A stretch of DNA of 23,383 nucleotides from Promethearchaeota archaeon (lineage in GTDB: Archaea > Asgardarchaeota > Lokiarchaeia > Sigyniarchaeales > SOKP01), in NCBI GenBank assembly GCA_016926735.1, contig JAFGOA010000008.1, positions 1 to 23,383 of the forward strand, in the 5' to 3' direction. Within the stretch, counting starts at the first letter, position 1. Each line of letters opens with the position of its first letter. Below are positions 2,087 through 21,960 of this stretch, one piece after another. Both the position numbers and the translations under genes were made by a program. The notes beneath the pieces are model-generated. The model saw nothing but the letters and a program-made list of their open reading frames with translations, had not been told where the DNA came from and searched no databases.

Positions 2087-2236
2087 TTATCCGCTAATCA
2101 TTCGCGTACATTCGCGGTGAAAGTATTATCCGCTAATTTTCGCTAATCATTCGCGGCTATTCGCGGTGAAATTATTATCCGCCAATTATTCGCGTACATT
2201 CGCGGTCAAATTATTTATTCGCAGCTATTCGCGGTT
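2087..2236. repeat. Tandem array of modular ~39-bp units downstream of the GxxExxY gene
   Basis: Units start with TTATCCGC at 2087 (39 bp), 2126 (49 bp, one extra 10-bp module) and 2175 (39 bp). A partial unit at 2214-2236 overlaps the last codons and stop of the GxxExxY gene. Confidence 0.95.
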
Positions 2237-2613
2237 CTCGTATTTGCATAACGTTTATATTGTAACTTTTCTCCCCCAAAATTTACTAATAGACCTAAAG
2301 GTTTTTTTGTGCCTTTAAGATAATTGAGTATCTGTGCTTCGTCAGCCGGTGAAAGTGCTTCCATTGCTTTAATCTCAACTATTATATTACTGAAGCATAA
2401 AAAATCCGGGTAATATTTTTTCTTCAACTCAATATCCTTATAAAATACATTCATCTCAGAGAACTGAACAAAAGGTATATTTTGTTTTGTGAATTCTATT
2501 GATAATGCTTCTTGATATACTGCCTCTAAAAAACCATGCCCCAATTCATTATGCACTTCAAAACAACAACCGATTATTTTATATGCCTCTTCTTTAAATA
2601 TTAAATCTGACAT
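2215..2613 (-). CDS. GxxExxY protein (PD-(D/E)xK nuclease-like fold, function unknown)
   Basis: 132 aa with VHNELGHGFLEAVYQEAL (GxxExxY), YPDFLC..IIVEIKA, AQILNYLK...GLLVNFG. AAGGAG RBS at 2623-2618. Confidence 0.92.
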   Translation of the reverse strand: MSDLIFKEEAYKIIGCCFEVHNELGHGFLEAVYQEALSIEFTKQNIPFVQFSEMNVFYKDIELKKKYYPDFLCFSNIIVEIKAMEALSPADEAQILNYLKGTKKPLGLLVNFGGEKLQYKRYANTRTANSCE

Positions 2614-4084: not shown

Positions 4085-4133
4085 AATTATAATTTAATTT
4101 ATAAGTAATTAATATAAAAAATAGGAATAAGTG

Positions 4134-4346
4134 CTAATTTCTAATTTTATTTAGTGAATATTTAATAACATTTTTAAATTTCTGTAACACTAATTCTTTC
4201 AGCCAAAGAAATTATGAATCATGCCATCTTTCGGGGTGGACAGTAAACATAATTTTGTTTGGAAGTCTTTCAATATTAGTTATTATCTTTTGCGTAGTTT
4301 TAAAATCAAAGTGAAATTTAGAACTTACTTTATCCTTAGTACTTCT
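4134..4346 (-). pseudogene. 3' remnant of a conserved polysaccharide-locus protein (probably deacetylase-like), 5'-truncated with an internal stop
   Basis: My translation: RSTKDKVSSKFHFDFKTTQKIITNIERLPNKIMFTVHPERWHDS*FLWLKELVLQKFKNVIKYSLNKIRN*. Internal TAA at 4214-4212; no plausible start for a full-length gene upstream. Resembles the ...DKV...LP.KIM...HP.RW.D...W.KELV.Q..KN C-terminus I recall from hypothetical proteins in such loci. Confidence 0.6.
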
Positions 4347-4386
4347 GAGCGATAGTGTTGAGTCTATAATTTATTATAATTAAAAG

Positions 4387-4445
4387 TATTTCTTCCGACA
4401 AGTCGGAATCAATATGACAAAATAAAGGTTTTTCAATGGTTTCTA
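4387..4445. mobile_element. Truncated third MITE-like copy (hairpin and right end only)
   Basis: Hairpin TTCCGAC-AA-GTCGGAA (4393-4408) followed by ATGACA (4414-4419). Then GTTTTTCAATGGTTTCTA (4428-4445), 16/18 identical to the element 2 right end (450-467). No convincing left end. Confidence 0.55.
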
Positions 4446-4450
4446 ATTAA

Positions 4451-8498: not shown

Positions 8499-9692
8499 TT
8501 ATTTACTATTTTTTTTTCTCATTTCAACTTGAAAAATTGATTGCGGCTTATGAATAAATACTAATTTCAAAAATGGTTTCATATATTTAAGGAATTTACT
8601 AAATAAAAAATCATAAGAAGGATAATCAGTAAAAGAATGATTTTCACTATTCATTAATTTTTGAAATTCATCTTGTGTAATATTTATTTTTTTACATATA
8701 TATGAAATTGTCTGATTAATGGTATTATTATCATGAGGGACTTTTTTGATTTCATTAAGTGCAAAATCCCTGCTGATTTCATTGCTTAAAACTTGAGCTG
8801 ATAAAGTGATTTTTCTTTTATCAATACCAAATTTTTCATATAACCAATATGAGATACTAAATTTCGTAAAAATATTCTCGTAATGATGACCGCCATAATA
8901 TTCCCATCCATACTTTTCGCTTAGAAATTTTTGAGCTTTATTTTTGTTATAATCAAGGTAATAGAAAGGATAGATGCTCTTAATTTTTTTTATAAAACCA
9001 TAATAAAGTAAATTTAGTAGTGTATAATTGGGAAATGTTTTTAATTTTACCTTGCCATATTTTTTATGTAGATATTTCAATTGACGCCCGTCACCGTAAG
9101 TCCATTCAGTGGGCTGAGAACCCTCTGAACGAAAATCGTTACCACGTAATACGTAAGATATTCTTTCTCTTGCAGCTACTTTGTAAAGAACAGATTTTAT
9201 CGCTAAATCAGCGGGAATATCTATCCAAGGTAAACCAGCTAACATATAACATTTTATTAAATCTGCAACTTCTTCATAGTTTATTACATAAGTTTCTAAA
9301 TCAATTTTCAAAGTATTAGTCATACTTTTTATATTTTTAACTGCAATATCACTATTCCAGCCATTATCAAGATTTACTGCCAGGGGACGTAAGTTATATT
9401 CCTTCTTCGCAATGTGCATTAAATATGAGCTATCTGTACCCCCACTGACACCGATTATGCAGTCATATTTTTTTCCTTTTCCTTTTTCTTTTATTTTATC
9501 AACAATATTTTCCCATTGCTTTTTTCCTTTCTCACCCCTTGGATATTCTTCGCAAAGTTTATCAAACATTTTAGCATAATTAGACACACCGTTTTCATCA
9601 AATGTAATTCCGGGTACGGTTGTATCCCAGATACCTCTGGTGCAAATGCGGTATTCCTGTTTTGTTTCAATCATTAAAAAATTCCTTTTCAA
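8499..9692 (-). CDS. N-acetyl sugar amidotransferase (PP-loop; WbuX/WbpG/PseA-like); the true start may be the second Met (MIETKQ)
   Basis: 397 aa with YDCIIGVSGGTDSSY, LRPLAVNLDNGWNS, GWEYYGGHHYEN, FGIDKRK. Adjacent to hisF- and hisH-like genes. Confidence 0.88.
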   Translation of the reverse strand: MKRNFLMIETKQEYRICTRGIWDTTVPGITFDENGVSNYAKMFDKLCEEYPRGEKGKKQWENIVDKIKEKGKGKKYDCIIGVSGGTDSSYLMHIAKKEYNLRPLAVNLDNGWNSDIAVKNIKSMTNTLKIDLETYVINYEEVADLIKCYMLAGLPWIDIPADLAIKSVLYKVAARERISYVLRGNDFRSEGSQPTEWTYGDGRQLKYLHKKYGKVKLKTFPNYTLLNLLYYGFIKKIKSIYPFYYLDYNKNKAQKFLSEKYGWEYYGGHHYENIFTKFSISYWLYEKFGIDKRKITLSAQVLSNEISRDFALNEIKKVPHDNNTINQTISYICKKINITQDEFQKLMNSENHSFTDYPSYDFLFSKFLKYMKPFLKLVFIHKPQSIFQVEMRKKNSK

Positions 9693-10446
9693 ATAATTTA
9701 TTTATTTCACTTTTTGAAGGATAATTTATAAGTACAGCTCTTCGGGCACCATGATATATAAATAAACTGCCAGCAGCAAGTGCATGTGCATTACCCACTA
9801 AAAAAGCATCCCTTAAATGTTCAAGATTGCCCGCTCCTCCACATGCTACAACAGGTATATTCACATTATCTACAATACTCTTAATTAAAGTGAGATCATA
9901 TCCTGTCATCGTTCCATCTAAATCAGTAGAATTAATTATTAACTCTCCAGCACCTAATTGTTCAACCTTCTTTGAATATTCTATTGGATTGATTTTTGTT
10001 TTTTCGCTGCCATCTTTTATCCAACATTCATATTTACCAAAAAAATTTTTCTTAACATCTAAAGATACTACAATACTTTGACTTCCAAAAATCTTTGCTG
10101 ATTCTTCAATCAGTGATGGATTTAGAAAAGCACTTGTATTTATAATAACCTTCTCTGCTCCTGCTTTTAGTAACTGTTCAATCTGTTCAATATTACTAAT
10201 CCCACCACCGACACCGAAAGGCATAAATGCTTCATCACCAATATCTTTCACCAGATCAACAGAAATGTATCTTCCCTTTCTTGAAGCTGTAATATCGAGA
10301 AATACAAGTTCATCTGCTTTTAAATCATTAAAAATCTTAACAGCGTTTATCGGGTCACCTATATATCTTGGCTCTTTAAACTTCACTGTCTTAACAAGAC
10401 CTTTTCCTTTTAGAAGTAATACGGGTATTATTCTTGGGAGAAACAT
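9667..10446 (-). CDS. hisF: HisF-like cyclase-fold subunit of a sugar amidotransferase module (WbuZ/HisF2-like)
   Basis: 259 aa with RIIPVLLL..GLVKTVKF..PRYIGDPINAVKIFN, ADELVFLDI, GAGELIINS.DLDG..GYD, AVLINYP. This is the polysaccharide-locus paralogue, not the His-operon copy. Confidence 0.88.
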   Translation of the reverse strand: MFLPRIIPVLLLKGKGLVKTVKFKEPRYIGDPINAVKIFNDLKADELVFLDITASRKGRYISVDLVKDIGDEAFMPFGVGGGISNIEQIEQLLKAGAEKVIINTSAFLNPSLIEESAKIFGSQSIVVSLDVKKNFFGKYECWIKDGSEKTKINPIEYSKKVEQLGAGELIINSTDLDGTMTGYDLTLIKSIVDNVNIPVVACGGAGNLEHLRDAFLVGNAHALAAGSLFIYHGARRAVLINYPSKSEINKLFEKEFFND

Positions 10447-10521
10447 GTTTTAGTGATTATATTATTTAAGTTATAGTGCATTATTTTGTATAATAGATTA
10501 ATTTAATAAATCAGTGGCCTT

Positions 10522-10569
10522 GAGACTAGGAGACTTAGGGACTAAGTGACTTAGGAACTGAGTGATAGT
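10522..10569. repeat. 8-nt-period degenerate array (GAGACTNA-type), downstream arm of four-helix-bundle gene 1
   Basis: Plus strand: GAGACTAG GAGACTTA GGGACTAA GTGACTTA GGAACTGA GTGATAGT. Confidence 0.85.
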
Positions 10570-10936
10570 GATTTAATATAACCATTTTTCTGGTTGTAAG
10601 GACATATTTACCAATAATGTTATCATAATATTTATTTAGATTCTTATGTATTTCTTTGTCAATATAATTGCAACTTAAAGAGAAATCTAACCAAACCTGT
10701 GTTTCTGCTGCTTCACTTTCAGAGTCTGATAATTTAGAAACAAATGATTTAGGGTACTTCCTTTTTCTAAATGCTTCAGCAATATTCGAACATACAGATC
10801 GAGATGATCTTTTTATTTGATCAGTTAACGAATATTTTTCTTCTTTCGGAAAATTCTTTGTAAGATTATAAATTTCCATTGCTGCTTCAAATGCAACATT
10901 AAAAACATCTAGTTCCCTGTGTGATCTTATTTTCAT
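10535..10936 (-). CDS. Four-helix-bundle protein (23S rRNA intervening-sequence protein family), with a probable frameshift near the 3' end
   Basis: SHRELDVF, TKNFPKEEKYSLTDQIKRSSRSVCSNIAEAFRKR, EAAETQVWLDF. The family-like tail NMSLQPEKWLY* lies in another frame (stop at 10575-10573). Confidence 0.9.
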   Translation of the reverse strand: MKIRSHRELDVFNVAFEAAMEIYNLTKNFPKEEKYSLTDQIKRSSRSVCSNIAEAFRKRKYPKSFVSKLSDSESEAAETQVWLDFSLSCNYIDKEIHKNLNKYYDNIIGKYVLTTRKMVILNHYHSVPKSLSP

Positions 10937-10974
10937 TTATTATTTACGGTATTTTTCCAAAATTTTTTTGTTAC

Positions 10975-11019
10975 TAAGTCTCTCCTTATCTCTTAGTCTC
11001 TCTTTCTCTCAGTCTCTCA
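10975..11019. repeat. 8-nt-period degenerate array (TNAGTCTC-type), upstream arm of four-helix-bundle gene 1, inverted relative to 10522-10569
   Basis: Plus strand: TAAGTCTC tc CTTATCTC TTAGTCTC TCTTTCTC TCAGTCTC TCA. These are reverse complements of the GAGACTNA units. Confidence 0.85.
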
Positions 11020-11033
11020 TACATCCCCTTTCC

Positions 11034-11642
11034 TCAAATCTCCGCAAAATTCCTCAATACCTGCAGCCCTGCATCATGGCTTTTTTCTGGATGAAACTGA
11101 CAACCGTAAATATTATCTCTTTGAAAAGAAGAAACAAATCGTTCGCCGTAACTCGTTTCTGATATAATATCATTTTCATCATCACAAGTAACAAAATATG
11201 AATGAACAAAATAAAAGAAATCATTATTATCAATATTGTGAGTTAAATTGTTTTCCCTTTTAATATTCAAATTATTCCAGCCCATATGAGGTATTTTTAG
11301 TTTTTTAATTTGAAAATTGAATTTTCTTGTTTTACCTTTTATCCAGCCTAGCCCTTCACAATTTCCTTCTTCACTATATTCAGTCATTAATTGCATCCCA
11401 AGACAAATTCCTAATATTGGAATTTTTTTTTCTATTACTGCTGAATTGAGTATTTCAAATATTCCAAGTTTTTTAAGATTGGCAAATCCTCTTTCAAAAT
11501 GCCCAACTCCAGGTAAAATTATTTTATCTGCATTCAGTATATCATCCTCTCTTGAAGTAATAATTGCTTTTACTCTTATCCTTTCAAAGGCTTTTTGGAC
11601 AGAGCGAAGATTGCCCATACCGTAATCAATTATTGTAATCAT
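11034..11642 (-). CDS. hisH: HisH-like class I glutamine amidotransferase (WbuY-like)
   Basis: 202 aa with IIDYGMGNLRSV, ILPGVG, LGICLGMQ (catalytic Cys), IPHMGWN, FYFVHSY, QFHPEKS. Polysaccharide-locus paralogue. Confidence 0.92.
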   Translation of the reverse strand: MITIIDYGMGNLRSVQKAFERIRVKAIITSREDDILNADKIILPGVGHFERGFANLKKLGIFEILNSAVIEKKIPILGICLGMQLMTEYSEEGNCEGLGWIKGKTRKFNFQIKKLKIPHMGWNNLNIKRENNLTHNIDNNDFFYFVHSYFVTCDDENDIISETSYGERFVSSFQRDNIYGCQFHPEKSHDAGLQVLRNFAEI

Positions 11643-16161: not shown

Positions 16162-16366
16162 TAATTTTTTACAAATCTTAACAAAACTTATAAAGAATAT
16201 TAAAATTGTTGCAACATAGGGTTCAAAACCATTGTTAAATAATATTTAAAATACTCCGTGCACTTATATGGGCTTTTCAAAGATTTCATATAATAAGTTT
16301 TCCTAAAAATTTTATTAATTTAAGAAATACTAGCAGCAATCTTATACTTTGAATTCATAAAATAAC

Positions 16367-17665: not shown

Positions 17666-19057
17666 TTACTTTATGTTTTCATCTCTTATTTCTTCTTGTT
17701 GACTAAACCTTGATAATATAAAACTAACAAAAAATATTGAGAACCAAGTTCCACCGATAGCATCAATTTGTCCAATTAGCGAATAAATCAAAATAATCAT
17801 GTATAATACCAAAAAAATTAAACGAAAATCTAACTTTAATAAACTATTTCTTTTATTATCTAATTTTGCTAAAATAATACCAATAAAAAAATAAAAAAAA
17901 CAGCCAAAAAAACCAAAATTCAAATAAAACTCACCTGATAACCCTGTTCGTATCCCTGTACCTTCCCCTTTACGACTAATCATCATTTGTAAAATATACG
18001 CTGAATTGTCTAGTCTTATATCTTTTTTAATAATTCCGAATGGTTCTAAAAAAAAGTAGGGGATAAATGAAATCGGAATATTTATAAGCGTTGTACCATA
18101 TCTATAATCATTAAAAATTTCCATCATATTTACTAATTGATTATATTCATTAAATGTAAATGGAATTATATCCTTATAAAGTGTTGAACGAAAATCACTT
18201 CCATCAACAAAAAATTTTTCATACGGACTATCGTCCTGCATCCGTATTTTATAAATTAAAGAATTAAATACAAATAAACCTAATAAAATTAGTAATCCAA
18301 CCAAGAAATGTTTTCGTTTAATTTTTTTATAACAAACATAAATTAAAATACAACCAACCACAACCAATACAATAGGGAATCTTTGTGCAGTAATAGGTAA
18401 TTGAATAAAAGAAAAAAAAAGTATTGCTTTATAATACTTATGATCTTCTTTAATAGTTATTAACTGTTTAAATGAAAATAGAGAAGAAAAAATTAACATA
18501 TAGTATAACCTCGCAGCCCTAAGATCCATATCTCCTGTGAAACGTTGAACACCAATACGATCTGCAGTTAGAATACCAATGCCGCCTTCGGAGATTATAA
18601 TTAATAATGTTCCTAAAGTGCCTAACATAAAAAAAACTTTTATCGTTTTCTTCATATTTAATAATCTATATACATAATATTTATCCACATTTTTTTTTAT
18701 GGTAAGCATATATCCAATTATTATAAAGTAAAAGGATATCAGAATATAAATATTTGTTCTTAATAAGTCTCCCTTATATAGTGGATAAAAAGATTTGATA
18801 ATTAAAAAGTTCAGATTACCGACATAGACATACAATAAAAAAAAACTAAAAAATATTTTACTAAATAAAAAAGTATTATCATTATTAGTATATTTTCGTT
18901 GCCATTTGATTAAAAAAATTAAACCAGGTACAAATAACAATAAAGAATAAAAAGCTGTTTTGCTTTCCTCTATTTCTGGACTAATACTGACAAATATTAT
19001 CGAAATAATAATTACTGAAATGATAAAATATATTTTTTTTTTATGTTTTTCTTTCAT
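17666..19057 (-). CDS. wzy: Probable O-antigen/oligosaccharide repeat-unit polymerase
   Basis: 463 aa, many TM segments, a large loop near the C-terminus, GEFYLNFGFFG motif. Immediately follows the flippase (ATGA overlap). Confidence 0.75.
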   Translation of the reverse strand: MKEKHKKKIYFIISVIIISIIFVSISPEIEESKTAFYSLLLFVPGLIFLIKWQRKYTNNDNTFLFSKIFFSFFLLYVYVGNLNFLIIKSFYPLYKGDLLRTNIYILISFYFIIIGYMLTIKKNVDKYYVYRLLNMKKTIKVFFMLGTLGTLLIIISEGGIGILTADRIGVQRFTGDMDLRAARLYYMLIFSSLFSFKQLITIKEDHKYYKAILFFSFIQLPITAQRFPIVLVVVGCILIYVCYKKIKRKHFLVGLLILLGLFVFNSLIYKIRMQDDSPYEKFFVDGSDFRSTLYKDIIPFTFNEYNQLVNMMEIFNDYRYGTTLINIPISFIPYFFLEPFGIIKKDIRLDNSAYILQMMISRKGEGTGIRTGLSGEFYLNFGFFGCFFYFFIGIILAKLDNKRNSLLKLDFRLIFLVLYMIILIYSLIGQIDAIGGTWFSIFFVSFILSRFSQQEEIRDENIK

Positions 19058-21470: not shown

Positions 21471-21502
21471 AGATATATTTGTTCCTATCTTGTATTTTGG
21501 AT

Positions 21503-21552
21503 GTGGAAAAGTGGAATAGTGGAAAAGTTAAATAGTAAAAACTTGGAATAGT
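21503..21552. repeat. 8-nt-period array (GTGGAAWA-type), downstream arm of four-helix-bundle gene 2
   Basis: Plus strand: GTGGAAAA GTGGAATA GTGGAAAA GTTAAATA GTAAAAAC TTGGAATA GT. Confidence 0.88.
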
Positions 21553-21566
21553 ATAATTCTGTTTAT

Positions 21567-21920
21567 TCAAATCTTTACCTCTAAAGAATTTATTAATCCG
21601 TGTAACATTTTTCTAATATGTTTAACTTTTTCTATATTATTTTTAATATCTGCCAGATATCCTAATCTCATTGCAATTTCAATTTGAGTTTCAAATTCTG
21701 AAAGTGAAGCATTTGCAATCCATAAAAATTGTATAAATTCTTTTGTCCCTTTTCTGCTTGAACCTTCTGCAATATTCGAAGGGATTGAAATTACTGCTCG
21801 TCTAATTTGTGATGTTAAATTATAAAGTTCTTCTTTCGGAAACTCTTTAGTAAATTTATATACATCAACTACTAAATCCATACTAACTTTCCACACTTCT
21901 AATTCCTTATAGCTTTTCAC
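21567..21920 (-). CDS. Four-helix-bundle protein (23S rRNA intervening-sequence protein family)
   Basis: 117 aa, GTG start. SYKELEVWK.SMDL, FPKEELYNLTSQIRRAVISIPSNIAEGSSR, FIQFLWIA.ASLSEFETQ. Confidence 0.93.
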   Translation of the reverse strand: MKSYKELEVWKVSMDLVVDVYKFTKEFPKEELYNLTSQIRRAVISIPSNIAEGSSRKGTKEFIQFLWIANASLSEFETQIEIAMRLGYLADIKNNIEKVKHIRKMLHGLINSLEVKI

Positions 21921-21960
21921 CTAACCCCCTTTTCACCTTTCCACTATTCCACCTTTTCAA
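21913..21960. repeat. 8-nt-period array, upstream arm of four-helix-bundle gene 2, inverted relative to 21503-21552
   Basis: Minus strand: TTGAAAAG GTGGAATA GTGGAAAG GTGAAAAG GGGGTTAG GTGAAAAG. Includes the fnlB stop codon and the RBS and GTG start of the bundle gene. Confidence 0.85.

Follow-up and report, generated by a model that had tools for sequence, protein, structure and literature searches.

Within the 23,383 nucleotides of contig JAFGOA010000008.1 (positions 1 to 23,383, Promethearchaeota archaeon, assembly GCA_016926735.1) that were analysed here and are referred to as the window, a small gene on the minus strand is enclosed by two inverted arrays of 8-nt units. The gene codes for a four-helix-bundle (4HB) protein of the family known from the intervening sequences (IVS) of 23S rRNA, but its host is a polysaccharide operon. 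The question arises what such an element is in a protein-coding transcript and what its arrays are for. The results point tentatively to an IVS-type cassette in an operon mRNA, the arms of which form an RNase III-type stem. We put the probability of this interpretation at about 0.45, slightly under an even chance.

Structure and folding of the cassettes in the window

Profile matches of the open reading frames (ORFs) identify the window as a polysaccharide/O-antigen gene cluster on the minus strand. The first 4HB cassette is inserted at the junction of a hisH-like and a hisF2-like gene, both of them sugar-modification genes. These genes are 587 nt apart in the window. In the two relatives inspected, taken from 99 matching plasmid records, they abut directly. 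With 109.4 bits against PF05635 (cut-off 33.8) the enclosed protein is a member of the 23S_rRNA_IVP/four-helix-bundle family. It matches PF05635 and PF22296 only and is not a tyrosine transposase of the IS200/IS605 type.

The 5' arm begins about 12 nt past the hisH-like stop codon. On the mRNA (minus) strand it consists of units of the types GAGACUGA, GAGAAAGA and GAGACUAA, and the 3' arm holds GAGACTAG, GAGACTTA, GGGACTAA and GTGACTTA in reverse complement. An earlier reading of the letters without database searches, here called the sequence-only reading, had described a purine-rich 5' arm and a reverse-complement 3' arm at 10522-11019, with the first three units matching as inverted repeats at 6/8, 5/8 and 7/8 positions. 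The unit matches were reproduced by alignment, and the arrays were found as described by Tandem Repeats Finder (TRF; period 8/16 at both arms, Table 1) as well as by an inverted-repeat search, in which one repeat (I1; 28 nt, 75% complementary) spans the two arms. No intrinsic terminator is predicted inside the element, promoter-like sites there are not above chance, and the A-rich leader in front of the gene holds no promoter-like match on the sense strand. The Rfam scan of the window matched no family, rRNA included.

The first copy looks partly decayed, with a frameshifted tail and weaker arms. Among the matches listed, its residues 1-112 are 70-83% identical to a widespread subfamily of 123 aa, and its last approximately 21 residues are out of frame and read on into the 3' arm. 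Relatives finish with GK-V-NMS-LQPEKW-Y at 123 residues; the usual end of the family is found in an alternative frame (Table 1). A comparable shift is seen in one database relative (P0066, 139 aa), the tail of which reads through a repeat array.

For the two 53-nt arms of the first copy a duplex of -37.9 kcal/mol was calculated (z -2.4). Their dinucleotide shuffles gave -28.4 ± 4.0, and 18 of 1000 were as good. A genomic background of 617 window pairs with equal spacing gave -11.6 ± 4.0, and the arm duplexes of both 4HB copies lie far outside of it. The arm-arm stem occurs in both the minimum free energy (MFE) and the centroid structure and is retained in a context of 1101 nt. The energy of the whole 536-nt transcript is uninformative for this gene (z 0.1 against shuffles); hence, the arms were tested alone. 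The comparison of fold and shuffles suggested by the sequence-only reading came out modestly positive for the arm duplex, weaker with flanks added (see below) and uninformative for the whole transcript. Taken by itself, the first copy surpasses composition-matched shuffles only modestly, and it is the recurrence of the pattern that provides the strong evidence.

It recurs already within the window. The second 4HB protein, 29% identical to the first, is encoded between a WbcJ-like gene and wecB. The 5' arm of this copy overlaps the WbcJ-like stop codon and the GTG start of the 4HB gene itself, 23 nt lying between the two ORFs. Its arms form a predicted duplex of -38.9 kcal/mol against -26.7 ± 3.7 for shuffles (z -3.3; 2 of 1000 as good), and the fold (z -2.4) is closed by a 22-bp stem in the MFE and the centroid structure. 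The two copies have different unit sequences. A period-8 scan of the 23-kb window gave five arrays, namely the four 4HB flanks and an AT-rich run at 17879-17921.

Recurrence of the arrays in the gene family

The subfamily of the first gene (123 residues) is very large and highly conserved, with 8000 of 8000 scored candidates significant. A scan of genome contigs gave 601 matching stretches. Of these, 593 could be confirmed, and the best 80 represent the 79 loci used here. They come from at least eight phyla, including Bacteroidota, Ignavibacteriota, Chloroflexota, Cloacimonadota, Balneolota and Verrucomicrobiota. The closest relatives among these best 80 of the 593 matches belong to Melioribacteraceae (76-77% identity).

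Arrays were detected by a windowed count of lag matches, with the best of 158 gene-body control windows as threshold. Gene-body controls were chosen because further arrays in the distant flanks had raised the threshold when all controls were used. A stricter detector (+1 match, -2 mismatch), which found both arrays in 12 of 73 loci, was replaced because the units have two to three variable positions. When lags 4-13 were compared, lag 8 alone was enriched in the flanks, with a mean best count of 21-22 of 32 versus 12.8 in the controls. Side by side, almost every locus shows by eye a purine-rich short-period array 5' of the gene and its reverse complement right behind the stop codon. Of 75 usable flanks on each side, 47 upstream and 58 downstream ones hold an array above the threshold. 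Both flanks were usable in 71 loci; 62 of these have an array on at least one side and 38 on both. Among the 38 two-sided loci, the upstream array is purine-rich and the downstream array pyrimidine-rich in 33, one is purine-rich on both sides, four are mixed and none (0) is reversed. The arms comprise 4-15 units. The distance from the 5' array to the start codon has a median of 47 nt and that from the usual stop to the 3' array a median of 21 nt.

The pairing predicted for the window was found throughout the family. Out of 72 arm pairs, 41 reach z < -2 against their own dinucleotide shuffles, and 33 of the 72 reach z < -3; the arm pairs have a median energy of -51 kcal/mol, compared to -36 for shuffles and -38 for non-cognate arms. 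In 24 of the 72 pairs the match of the cognate arms exceeds the 95th percentile of non-cognate pairs. Furthermore, the lengths of the two arms are correlated (rho 0.50, n = 51). According to crude ORF calls for 63 loci, the 4HB gene has the direction of its two co-directional neighbours in 42 loci and the opposite one in 8; in the other 13 the neighbours are divergent or convergent.

The units themselves vary. Proteins with 60-80% identity carry clearly different units of the GRGAC, GCGA, GNGC and GGWGA classes, and two loci on one contig (L063 and L078) have different unit sequences. Several unit classes occur within one phylum, and one class is shared by Bacteroidota and Ignavibacteriota. 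What is conserved from cassette to cassette is the complementarity and not the sequence of the unit, which would suit an enzyme reading structure.

Joint insertion of arrays and gene

A tblastn search of plasmids with the second window protein gave 47 records, mostly cyanobacterial, and the 4HB flanks of ten of them were examined. The best period of the upstream flanks is 7 in nine cases and 8 in one, with counts of 13-20 of 21 compared to at most 12 in 20 gene-body controls. Downstream, the best period is 7 or 8 in eight of ten (counts 16-21). By best windows, seven of the ten copies are purine-rich upstream and pyrimidine-rich downstream, and two further ones by eye. These 4HB genes are located at junctions of cas6/cas4, cas10/cmr3 and of ribonucleotide reductase subunit genes.

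Two ribonucleotide reductase loci provide a filled and an empty site. The flanks of the cassette on plasmid pNe_5 of Nostoc edaphicum (L082) are 87% identical to those on plasmid1 of Calothrix NIES-4105 (L096), which has no insert. The homology reaches the nrdB start codon on one side and restarts at the nrdA stop codon on the other. The nrdA-nrdB spacer measures 16 nt without array in Calothrix and approximately 490 nt, made up of array, gene and array, in Nostoc. Both junctions were read directly from the sequences, the pairwise MAFFT alignment being misplaced on the left side. Arrays and gene were thus inserted jointly, as shown by this one empty-site comparison. The cas6-cas4 spacer of Dolichospermum (L097) was considered as empty site for the insertion in Anabaena sp. 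90 and rejected; it holds a different sequence of 245 nt.

Several particulars of the plasmid copies were noted besides. The cassettes at cas6/cas4 (L083) and cas10/cmr3 (L089) lie within CRISPR-cas operons, and the one in L082 is antisense between the ribonucleotide reductase subunit genes. On pANA02 of Anabaena sp. 90 (L083) about 39 tandem heptamers occupy the gap between cas6 and the 4HB gene (21-320). The annotated cas4 start of this locus (808, in front of the 3' array; region 808-870) probably over-extends the ORF through that array, since the homology to cas4 of Dolichospermum begins only at 876.

With these data the simplest explanation can be judged, that the arrays are incidental low-complexity DNA, slippage-prone repeats of long spacers without relation to the gene. 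Slippage does expand simple repeats, unit numbers vary widely, and the first window copy is only marginally above composition-matched shuffles. However, lag 8 alone is enriched, and only beside the gene; the same unit type stands inverted on both flanks in 33 of 38 loci, and cognate arms match better than non-cognate ones. The pattern also holds across phyla and, with period 7, in a second subfamily, and the empty site has no array. The incidental origin is already contradicted and can be set aside as highly improbable.

Proposed interpretation as an insert looped out of the operon mRNA

According to the favoured interpretation, the cassette is composed of a purine-rich array of tandem units, a 4HB (S23p/Avd-like) gene and the reverse-complement array, with a protein-coding operon instead of 23S rRNA as host. 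It would have entered in one piece at the hisH-like/hisF2-like junction, which is normally of zero length. As the host operon would be transcribed through the cassette, the arrays could pair to a long, imperfect stem with the gene in its loop. In analogy to the elements in rRNA, this stem is proposed to be a substrate of RNase III, and the cleavage would release or insulate the insert and thereby make the insertion tolerable. The arms may be periodic because tandem duplication is the easiest route to a longer stem. Since an arm built of repeats is complementary in many registers, either arm would be free to lengthen or shorten without a matching change in its partner. The membership in PF05635/TIGR02436, the predicted pairing, the recurrence in the family and in the plasmid subfamily, the correlated arm lengths, the empty site, the abutting hisH and hisF2 of the relatives, the missing terminator and promoter, the co-orientation with host genes (42 versus 8) and the precedent of RNase III in rRNA IVS are in favour of this interpretation. 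The layout, its recurrence, the joint insertion, the predicted pairing and the co-orientation are results of the analysis; the stem in vivo, its cleavage by RNase III and the reason for the periodicity are inferred.

Several results weigh against it. RNase III cleavage is known for the rRNA copies, and the non-rRNA copies are known from sequence alone. With 100-nt flanks, the arms of the first copy reach a z of only -1.4 (7 of 60 shuffles as good), and the longest uninterrupted helix in its fold has 7 bp. No period-8 array above the threshold is present on either flank in 9 of the 71 loci; three of these nine (L035, L066 and L076) have by eye arrays with a period near 9. GxxExxY genes, a second kind of gene between arrays (see below), have direct rather than inverted flanking arrays in four of seven cases. 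Furthermore, permutation of the unit order in the 3' arm barely lowers its match to the 5' arm (mean z 0.38; z > 2 in 1 of 51 arrays, below 0 in 17 of 51). Mismatches that give G.U or U.G in the sense RNA (111) are not in excess over A.C or C.A (119). These covariation and wobble tests were made without a fixed pairing register of the arms, which weakens them.

The variation within the arrays is strongly position-specific (chi-square 650.6, 343 df). For 34 arrays of the GRGAC type, mismatch rates of 0.10, 0.34, 0.03, 0.06, 0.14, 0.17, 0.30 and 0.14 were obtained along the eight positions of GRGACNNA. G3 and A4 are nearly invariant in comparison with positions 2 and 7, and such invariant positions resemble a recognition motif more than a plain helix. 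A stem does not demand the polarity with purines first (33 versus 0) either. Invariant positions, fixed polarity and the lack of covariation at the level of pairs are not explained by the growth of a stem; hence, protein binding and DNA ends stay live as rivals. The looped-out ORF of the sequence-only reading is therefore upheld in part. The arms pair in the predicted folds and their complementarity is family-wide, but the order of the units is irrelevant and an excess of G.U pairs is missing.

Arrays as possible protein-binding sites

Instead of the stem, or besides it, the arrays could serve as binding sites. One or several pentameric 4HB rings would bind the repeated core of the units flanking their own gene, either as single-stranded RNA, in the manner of the trp RNA-binding attenuation protein (TRAP), or as DNA. 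The sequence-only reading had named a TRAP-like arrangement, with 5-6 units for a pentameric ring, as alternative to the stem. We regard binding by the ring as unlikely, though a serious candidate, and the same holds for its consequence, an autoregulated translation of the 4HB gene or a marking of the cassette ends. The two almost invariant positions among otherwise variable ones, the irrelevance of unit order and the missing wobble signature are consistent with such binding. The motif has a fixed polarity at both ends, as would be expected for oriented binding, and the 5' array often comes close to the start codon or overlaps it (8 of 47 loci at 15 nt or less, and the second gene of the window). 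The PDB entries of two relatives, 2GSC and 2RLD, contain five chains each, and the accessible text of PMC4990558, citing Lin et al. 2006, describes a toroidal homopentamer.

In contrast, the number of units is not tied to five: the solved relatives have five chains, compared to 4-15 units per arm and about 39 in L083. In the mRNA one arm carries the motif and the other its complement, so that both cannot be bound with a single RNA-binding specificity. A protein tree of 77 rows (68 with unit label) was built without three loci that have in-frame stops; on it the unit class changes 26 times versus 36.9 times after shuffling (0 of 200 as low). This clustering is in line with recognition, but it is also expected from co-inheritance; it fits arms that may have been inherited with the gene and is no proof of recognition. 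Moreover, proteins with 60-80% identity have quite different units. In-frame stops interrupt the conserved ORF in 3 of 79 loci (L022, ~1501-1872; L033, ~1379-1750; L037, ~1501-1872), the window copy is frameshifted, and the arrays nevertheless persist. For Coxiella, the authors conclude in the accessible part of their paper that S23p is probably not made in vivo (PMC4990558).

Arrays as possible ends of a mobile element

The arrays could also act on the DNA level and provide a mobile element with terminal inverted repeats or with handles for recombination. The cassette would be moved by a host or trans-acting recombinase, or by homologous exchange with gene-less hairpins as landing pads, similar to repetitive extragenic palindromic (REP) doublets and REP-associated tyrosine transposases (RAYT). 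We consider this explanation, including the proposed routes of movement, rather improbable. It agrees with the joint entry of arrays and gene at a site that had neither, and the inward-pointing polarity of the motif resembles terminal inverted repeats. The family is 60-83% identical from Bacteroidota to Chloroflexota and includes thousands of near-identical relatives, many of them on short contigs, which fits horizontal spread and multi-copy repeats.

Gene-less hairpins of the same style were found near 4HB cassettes in six loci (L005, L018, L029, L031, L047 and L073; Table 1). In each of them the pyrimidine array lies immediately behind the purine array or 10-120 nt further on, and no gene is enclosed. 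The calculated energies range from -48 (L047, 1810-1925) to -153 kcal/mol (L031, 1860-2135). Most of the apparent exceptions with direct orientation in the flank survey are due to these hairpins. A short conserved stretch is common to the hairpin loops of L005 and L029 and might derive from a gene that has been lost. In the period-8 scan of the 23-kb window no gene-less inverted doublets were detected. As far as the accessible text of PMC2700814 goes, Geobacter metallireducens has dozens of comparable paired inverted tandem sites, some of them with IS110-family insertions at a fixed distance.

Against ends of this kind speaks that no transposase, integrase or nuclease is encoded within the 4HB cassette according to the ORF list and the profile search. 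A target-site duplication is not evident at the one junction pair examined (L082/L096), and no two surveyed loci represent the same cassette at different sites of one genome. The unit sequences differ among cassettes within one genome, and thus no single end-recognising enzyme could serve all of them. It should be added that binding sites and DNA ends are not mutually exclusive, and that binding could also occur besides a stem.

Comparison with known systems

The closest parallel of the proposed looped-out insert is the 23S rRNA IVS with S23p ORF of Coxiella and Leptospira. As far as these elements are described in the accessible sources, they have a PF05635 ORF in the loop of a stem of terminal inverted repeats, short purine-rich tandem repeats (7 nt) in front of the ORF, and signs of ORF decay. 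In Coxiella the terminal inverted repeats make up a stem of 28 bp that is cut by RNase III in its middle in vitro. Two to three tandem heptamers, their number varying with the strain, lie between an AG-rich stretch and the start of S23p, and the 5' cut of RNase III is located at the first heptamer; the S23p ORF is decayed (all according to the available text of PMC4990558). In contrast, the window element is hosted by a polysaccharide-operon mRNA and not by helix 9, 25 or 45 of 23S rRNA, its period is 8, and both arms are made wholly of repeats.

The short tandemly repeated repetitive (STRR) sequences of cyanobacteria are tandem 7-nt intergenic units able to form hairpins, for example between hupS and hupL; in the available text their function is given as unknown, with transcript stability or translational coupling as suggestions (PMC2670836). 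STRR-type heptamers of heterocystous cyanobacteria are what flanks the 4HB genes of the ten cyanobacterial plasmid copies examined. However, the STRR are described as repeats in their own right, and the accessible part of the description mentions neither an enclosed gene nor a connection to 4HB proteins. The window units, moreover, have 8 nt, and their nearest relatives are in Ignavibacteriota and Bacteroidota.

Tandem 7-9-mers in opposite-strand pairs were reported for Geobacter metallireducens as global regulator binding sites of classes 1-3 (24, 21 and 8 pairs). They are intergenic, including positions within the operons nifD/nifK, pdhA/pdhB and proB/proA, and were interpreted as sites of the IHF/HU type (PMC2700814, as far as accessible). 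With three to five tandem units per site and variable spacing they resemble the arrays of this study, and the class-2 unit, read as reverse complement, belongs to the GAGACGGA type found here. Unlike the cassettes, they are without cargo or next to transposases of the IS110 family, and no 4HB gene is mentioned in the accessible text. The TAACTGA repeats of Beggiatoaceae, which were also considered, are upstream-only direct arrays in the part of the source available (PMC4679880) and a different thing.

REP/REPIN-RAYT systems consist of a small gene between inverted copies of a short palindromic repeat, which also occurs without the gene as intergenic hairpin doublets. A single small gene bracketed by inverted repeats is a feature in common. 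Gene-less hairpins lie near the cassettes in six related loci, and none was detected in the 23-kb window. Here, in contrast, the gene codes for a four-helix bundle and not for an IS200/IS605-type tyrosine transposase, the arms are tandem arrays of idiosyncratic units instead of one conserved palindrome, and many cassettes occur per genome. A further relative by fold is Avd, the accessory protein of diversity-generating retroelements. It has a homologous four-helix bundle, and both window proteins are weak matches to PF22296 (bAvd) and NF033474. The scores for NF033474 are only 30.0 and 23.7 bits against a cut-off of 80, and the profile search of 12 window ORFs brought up no reverse transcriptase.

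No paper on inverted short-period arrays around 4HB genes outside rRNA was found in the open-access literature. Thus, the bracketing by inverted octamer arrays outside rRNA seems not to have been described before.

A broader interpretation is possible, although we hold it to be doubtful. The 4HB IVS proteins, the STRR heptamers, the paired sites of Geobacter and the 23S rRNA IVS would then belong to one pan-bacterial class of hairpin cassettes. Genes for 4HB proteins, perhaps also for the GxxExxY nuclease, might travel with self-complementary arms of 7-9-nt units into tight operon junctions and rRNA loops and be tolerated there as the host transcript is cut or folded around them. The 4HB ring might recognise the core that is repeated in its own arms and contribute to their spread or maintenance, as RAYT does for REPINs.

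To our knowledge, neither a function nor a route of spread has been found for the 23S rRNA IVS and its conserved ORF since the early 1990s, and we know of no explanation for the cyanobacterial STRR repeats over about the same time. If one cassette architecture is indeed present in operons of many phyla, the rRNA cases would be a special case of a general element. Such an element would be open to study in ordinary mRNAs, and Nostoc and Cyclobacterium, among others, would be tractable hosts for it. Thousands of genes annotated as four helix bundle protein would become recognisable as insertions. The arrays would also explain contig breaks and spurious ORF extensions, as for the frameshifted tail of the first gene and the cas4 start on the plasmid. 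Located between translationally coupled genes (hisH/hisF2, nrdA/nrdB, cas10/cmr3), the cassettes may change operon expression.

Features of the window and further observations

The coordinates of the elements and of the neighbouring genes are collected in Table 1.

Table 1 Positions of cassette parts, host genes and related features; positions refer to the window unless a locus is named
Feature	Position	Strand	Basis
Upstream host gene, hisH-like glutamine amidotransferase, WbuY type	11034..11642	-	TIGR01855, 5.8e-75
First copy, 5' arm, purine-rich period-8 array, 5-6 units of GAGACNNA type	10974..11023	-	TRF 10977-11019; lag-8 array 10977-11023
First copy, A-rich leader from 5' arm to ATG of the 4HB gene	10937..10973	-	Sequence
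First 4HB gene, 133 aa as read	10535..10936	-	PF05635, 1.3e-31; TIGR02436, 2.4e-27
Alternative frame with the usual C-terminal end of the family and stop (LQPEKWLY, stop)	10573..10599	-	Apparent frameshift near 10600
First copy, 3' arm, pyrimidine-rich on the mRNA, 5-6 units, reverse complement of GAGACTNA-type	10514..10565	-	TRF 10522-10565; lag-8 array
Downstream host gene, AglZ/HisF2 acetamidino-modification protein	9667..10446	-	NF038364, 9.3e-106
Second copy, 5' arm, GTGGAAAA-type units	21913..21960	-	Lag-8 scan
Second 4HB gene, 117 aa, GTG start	21567..21920	-	PF05635, 4.2e-38
Second copy, 3' arm, reverse complement of GTGGAAAA-type units	21495..21552	-	TRF 21503-21552
GxxExxY/PDDEXK_3 gene	2215-2613	-	PF13366, 9.3e-40; TIGR04256, 6.4e-43
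Gene-less hairpins near 4HB cassettes	L005 760-952; L029 769-985; L047 1825-1912; L031 1868-2121; L018 1877-2154; L073 2898-3246

A tblastn search of a phage collection with the first 4HB gene gave no match at E <= 1e-5, and the PADLOC defence models did not match the three small proteins of the window.

The GxxExxY gene of the window is flanked by arrays with a period of 39 nt and sub-units of the GCGAAT type at 2625-2847 and 2087-2234. Both have the same orientation and are thus direct, and the last codons of the gene enter the downstream array. Six plasmid relatives of this gene were obtained from eight records; the flanks are inverted in L090, L093 and L094 and direct in L091, L092 and L095.

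On a plasmid of Spirosoma oryzicola (L098) a tandem duplication of approximately 120 nt at 1376-1570 covers the hisH stop and the hisF2 start. The annotated hisF2 start is displaced by it, and an apparent gap of 169 nt results. In the otherwise tightly packed cluster of the window, two further gaps are unusually long, at 4085-4450 (366 nt) and at 16162-16366 (205 nt).

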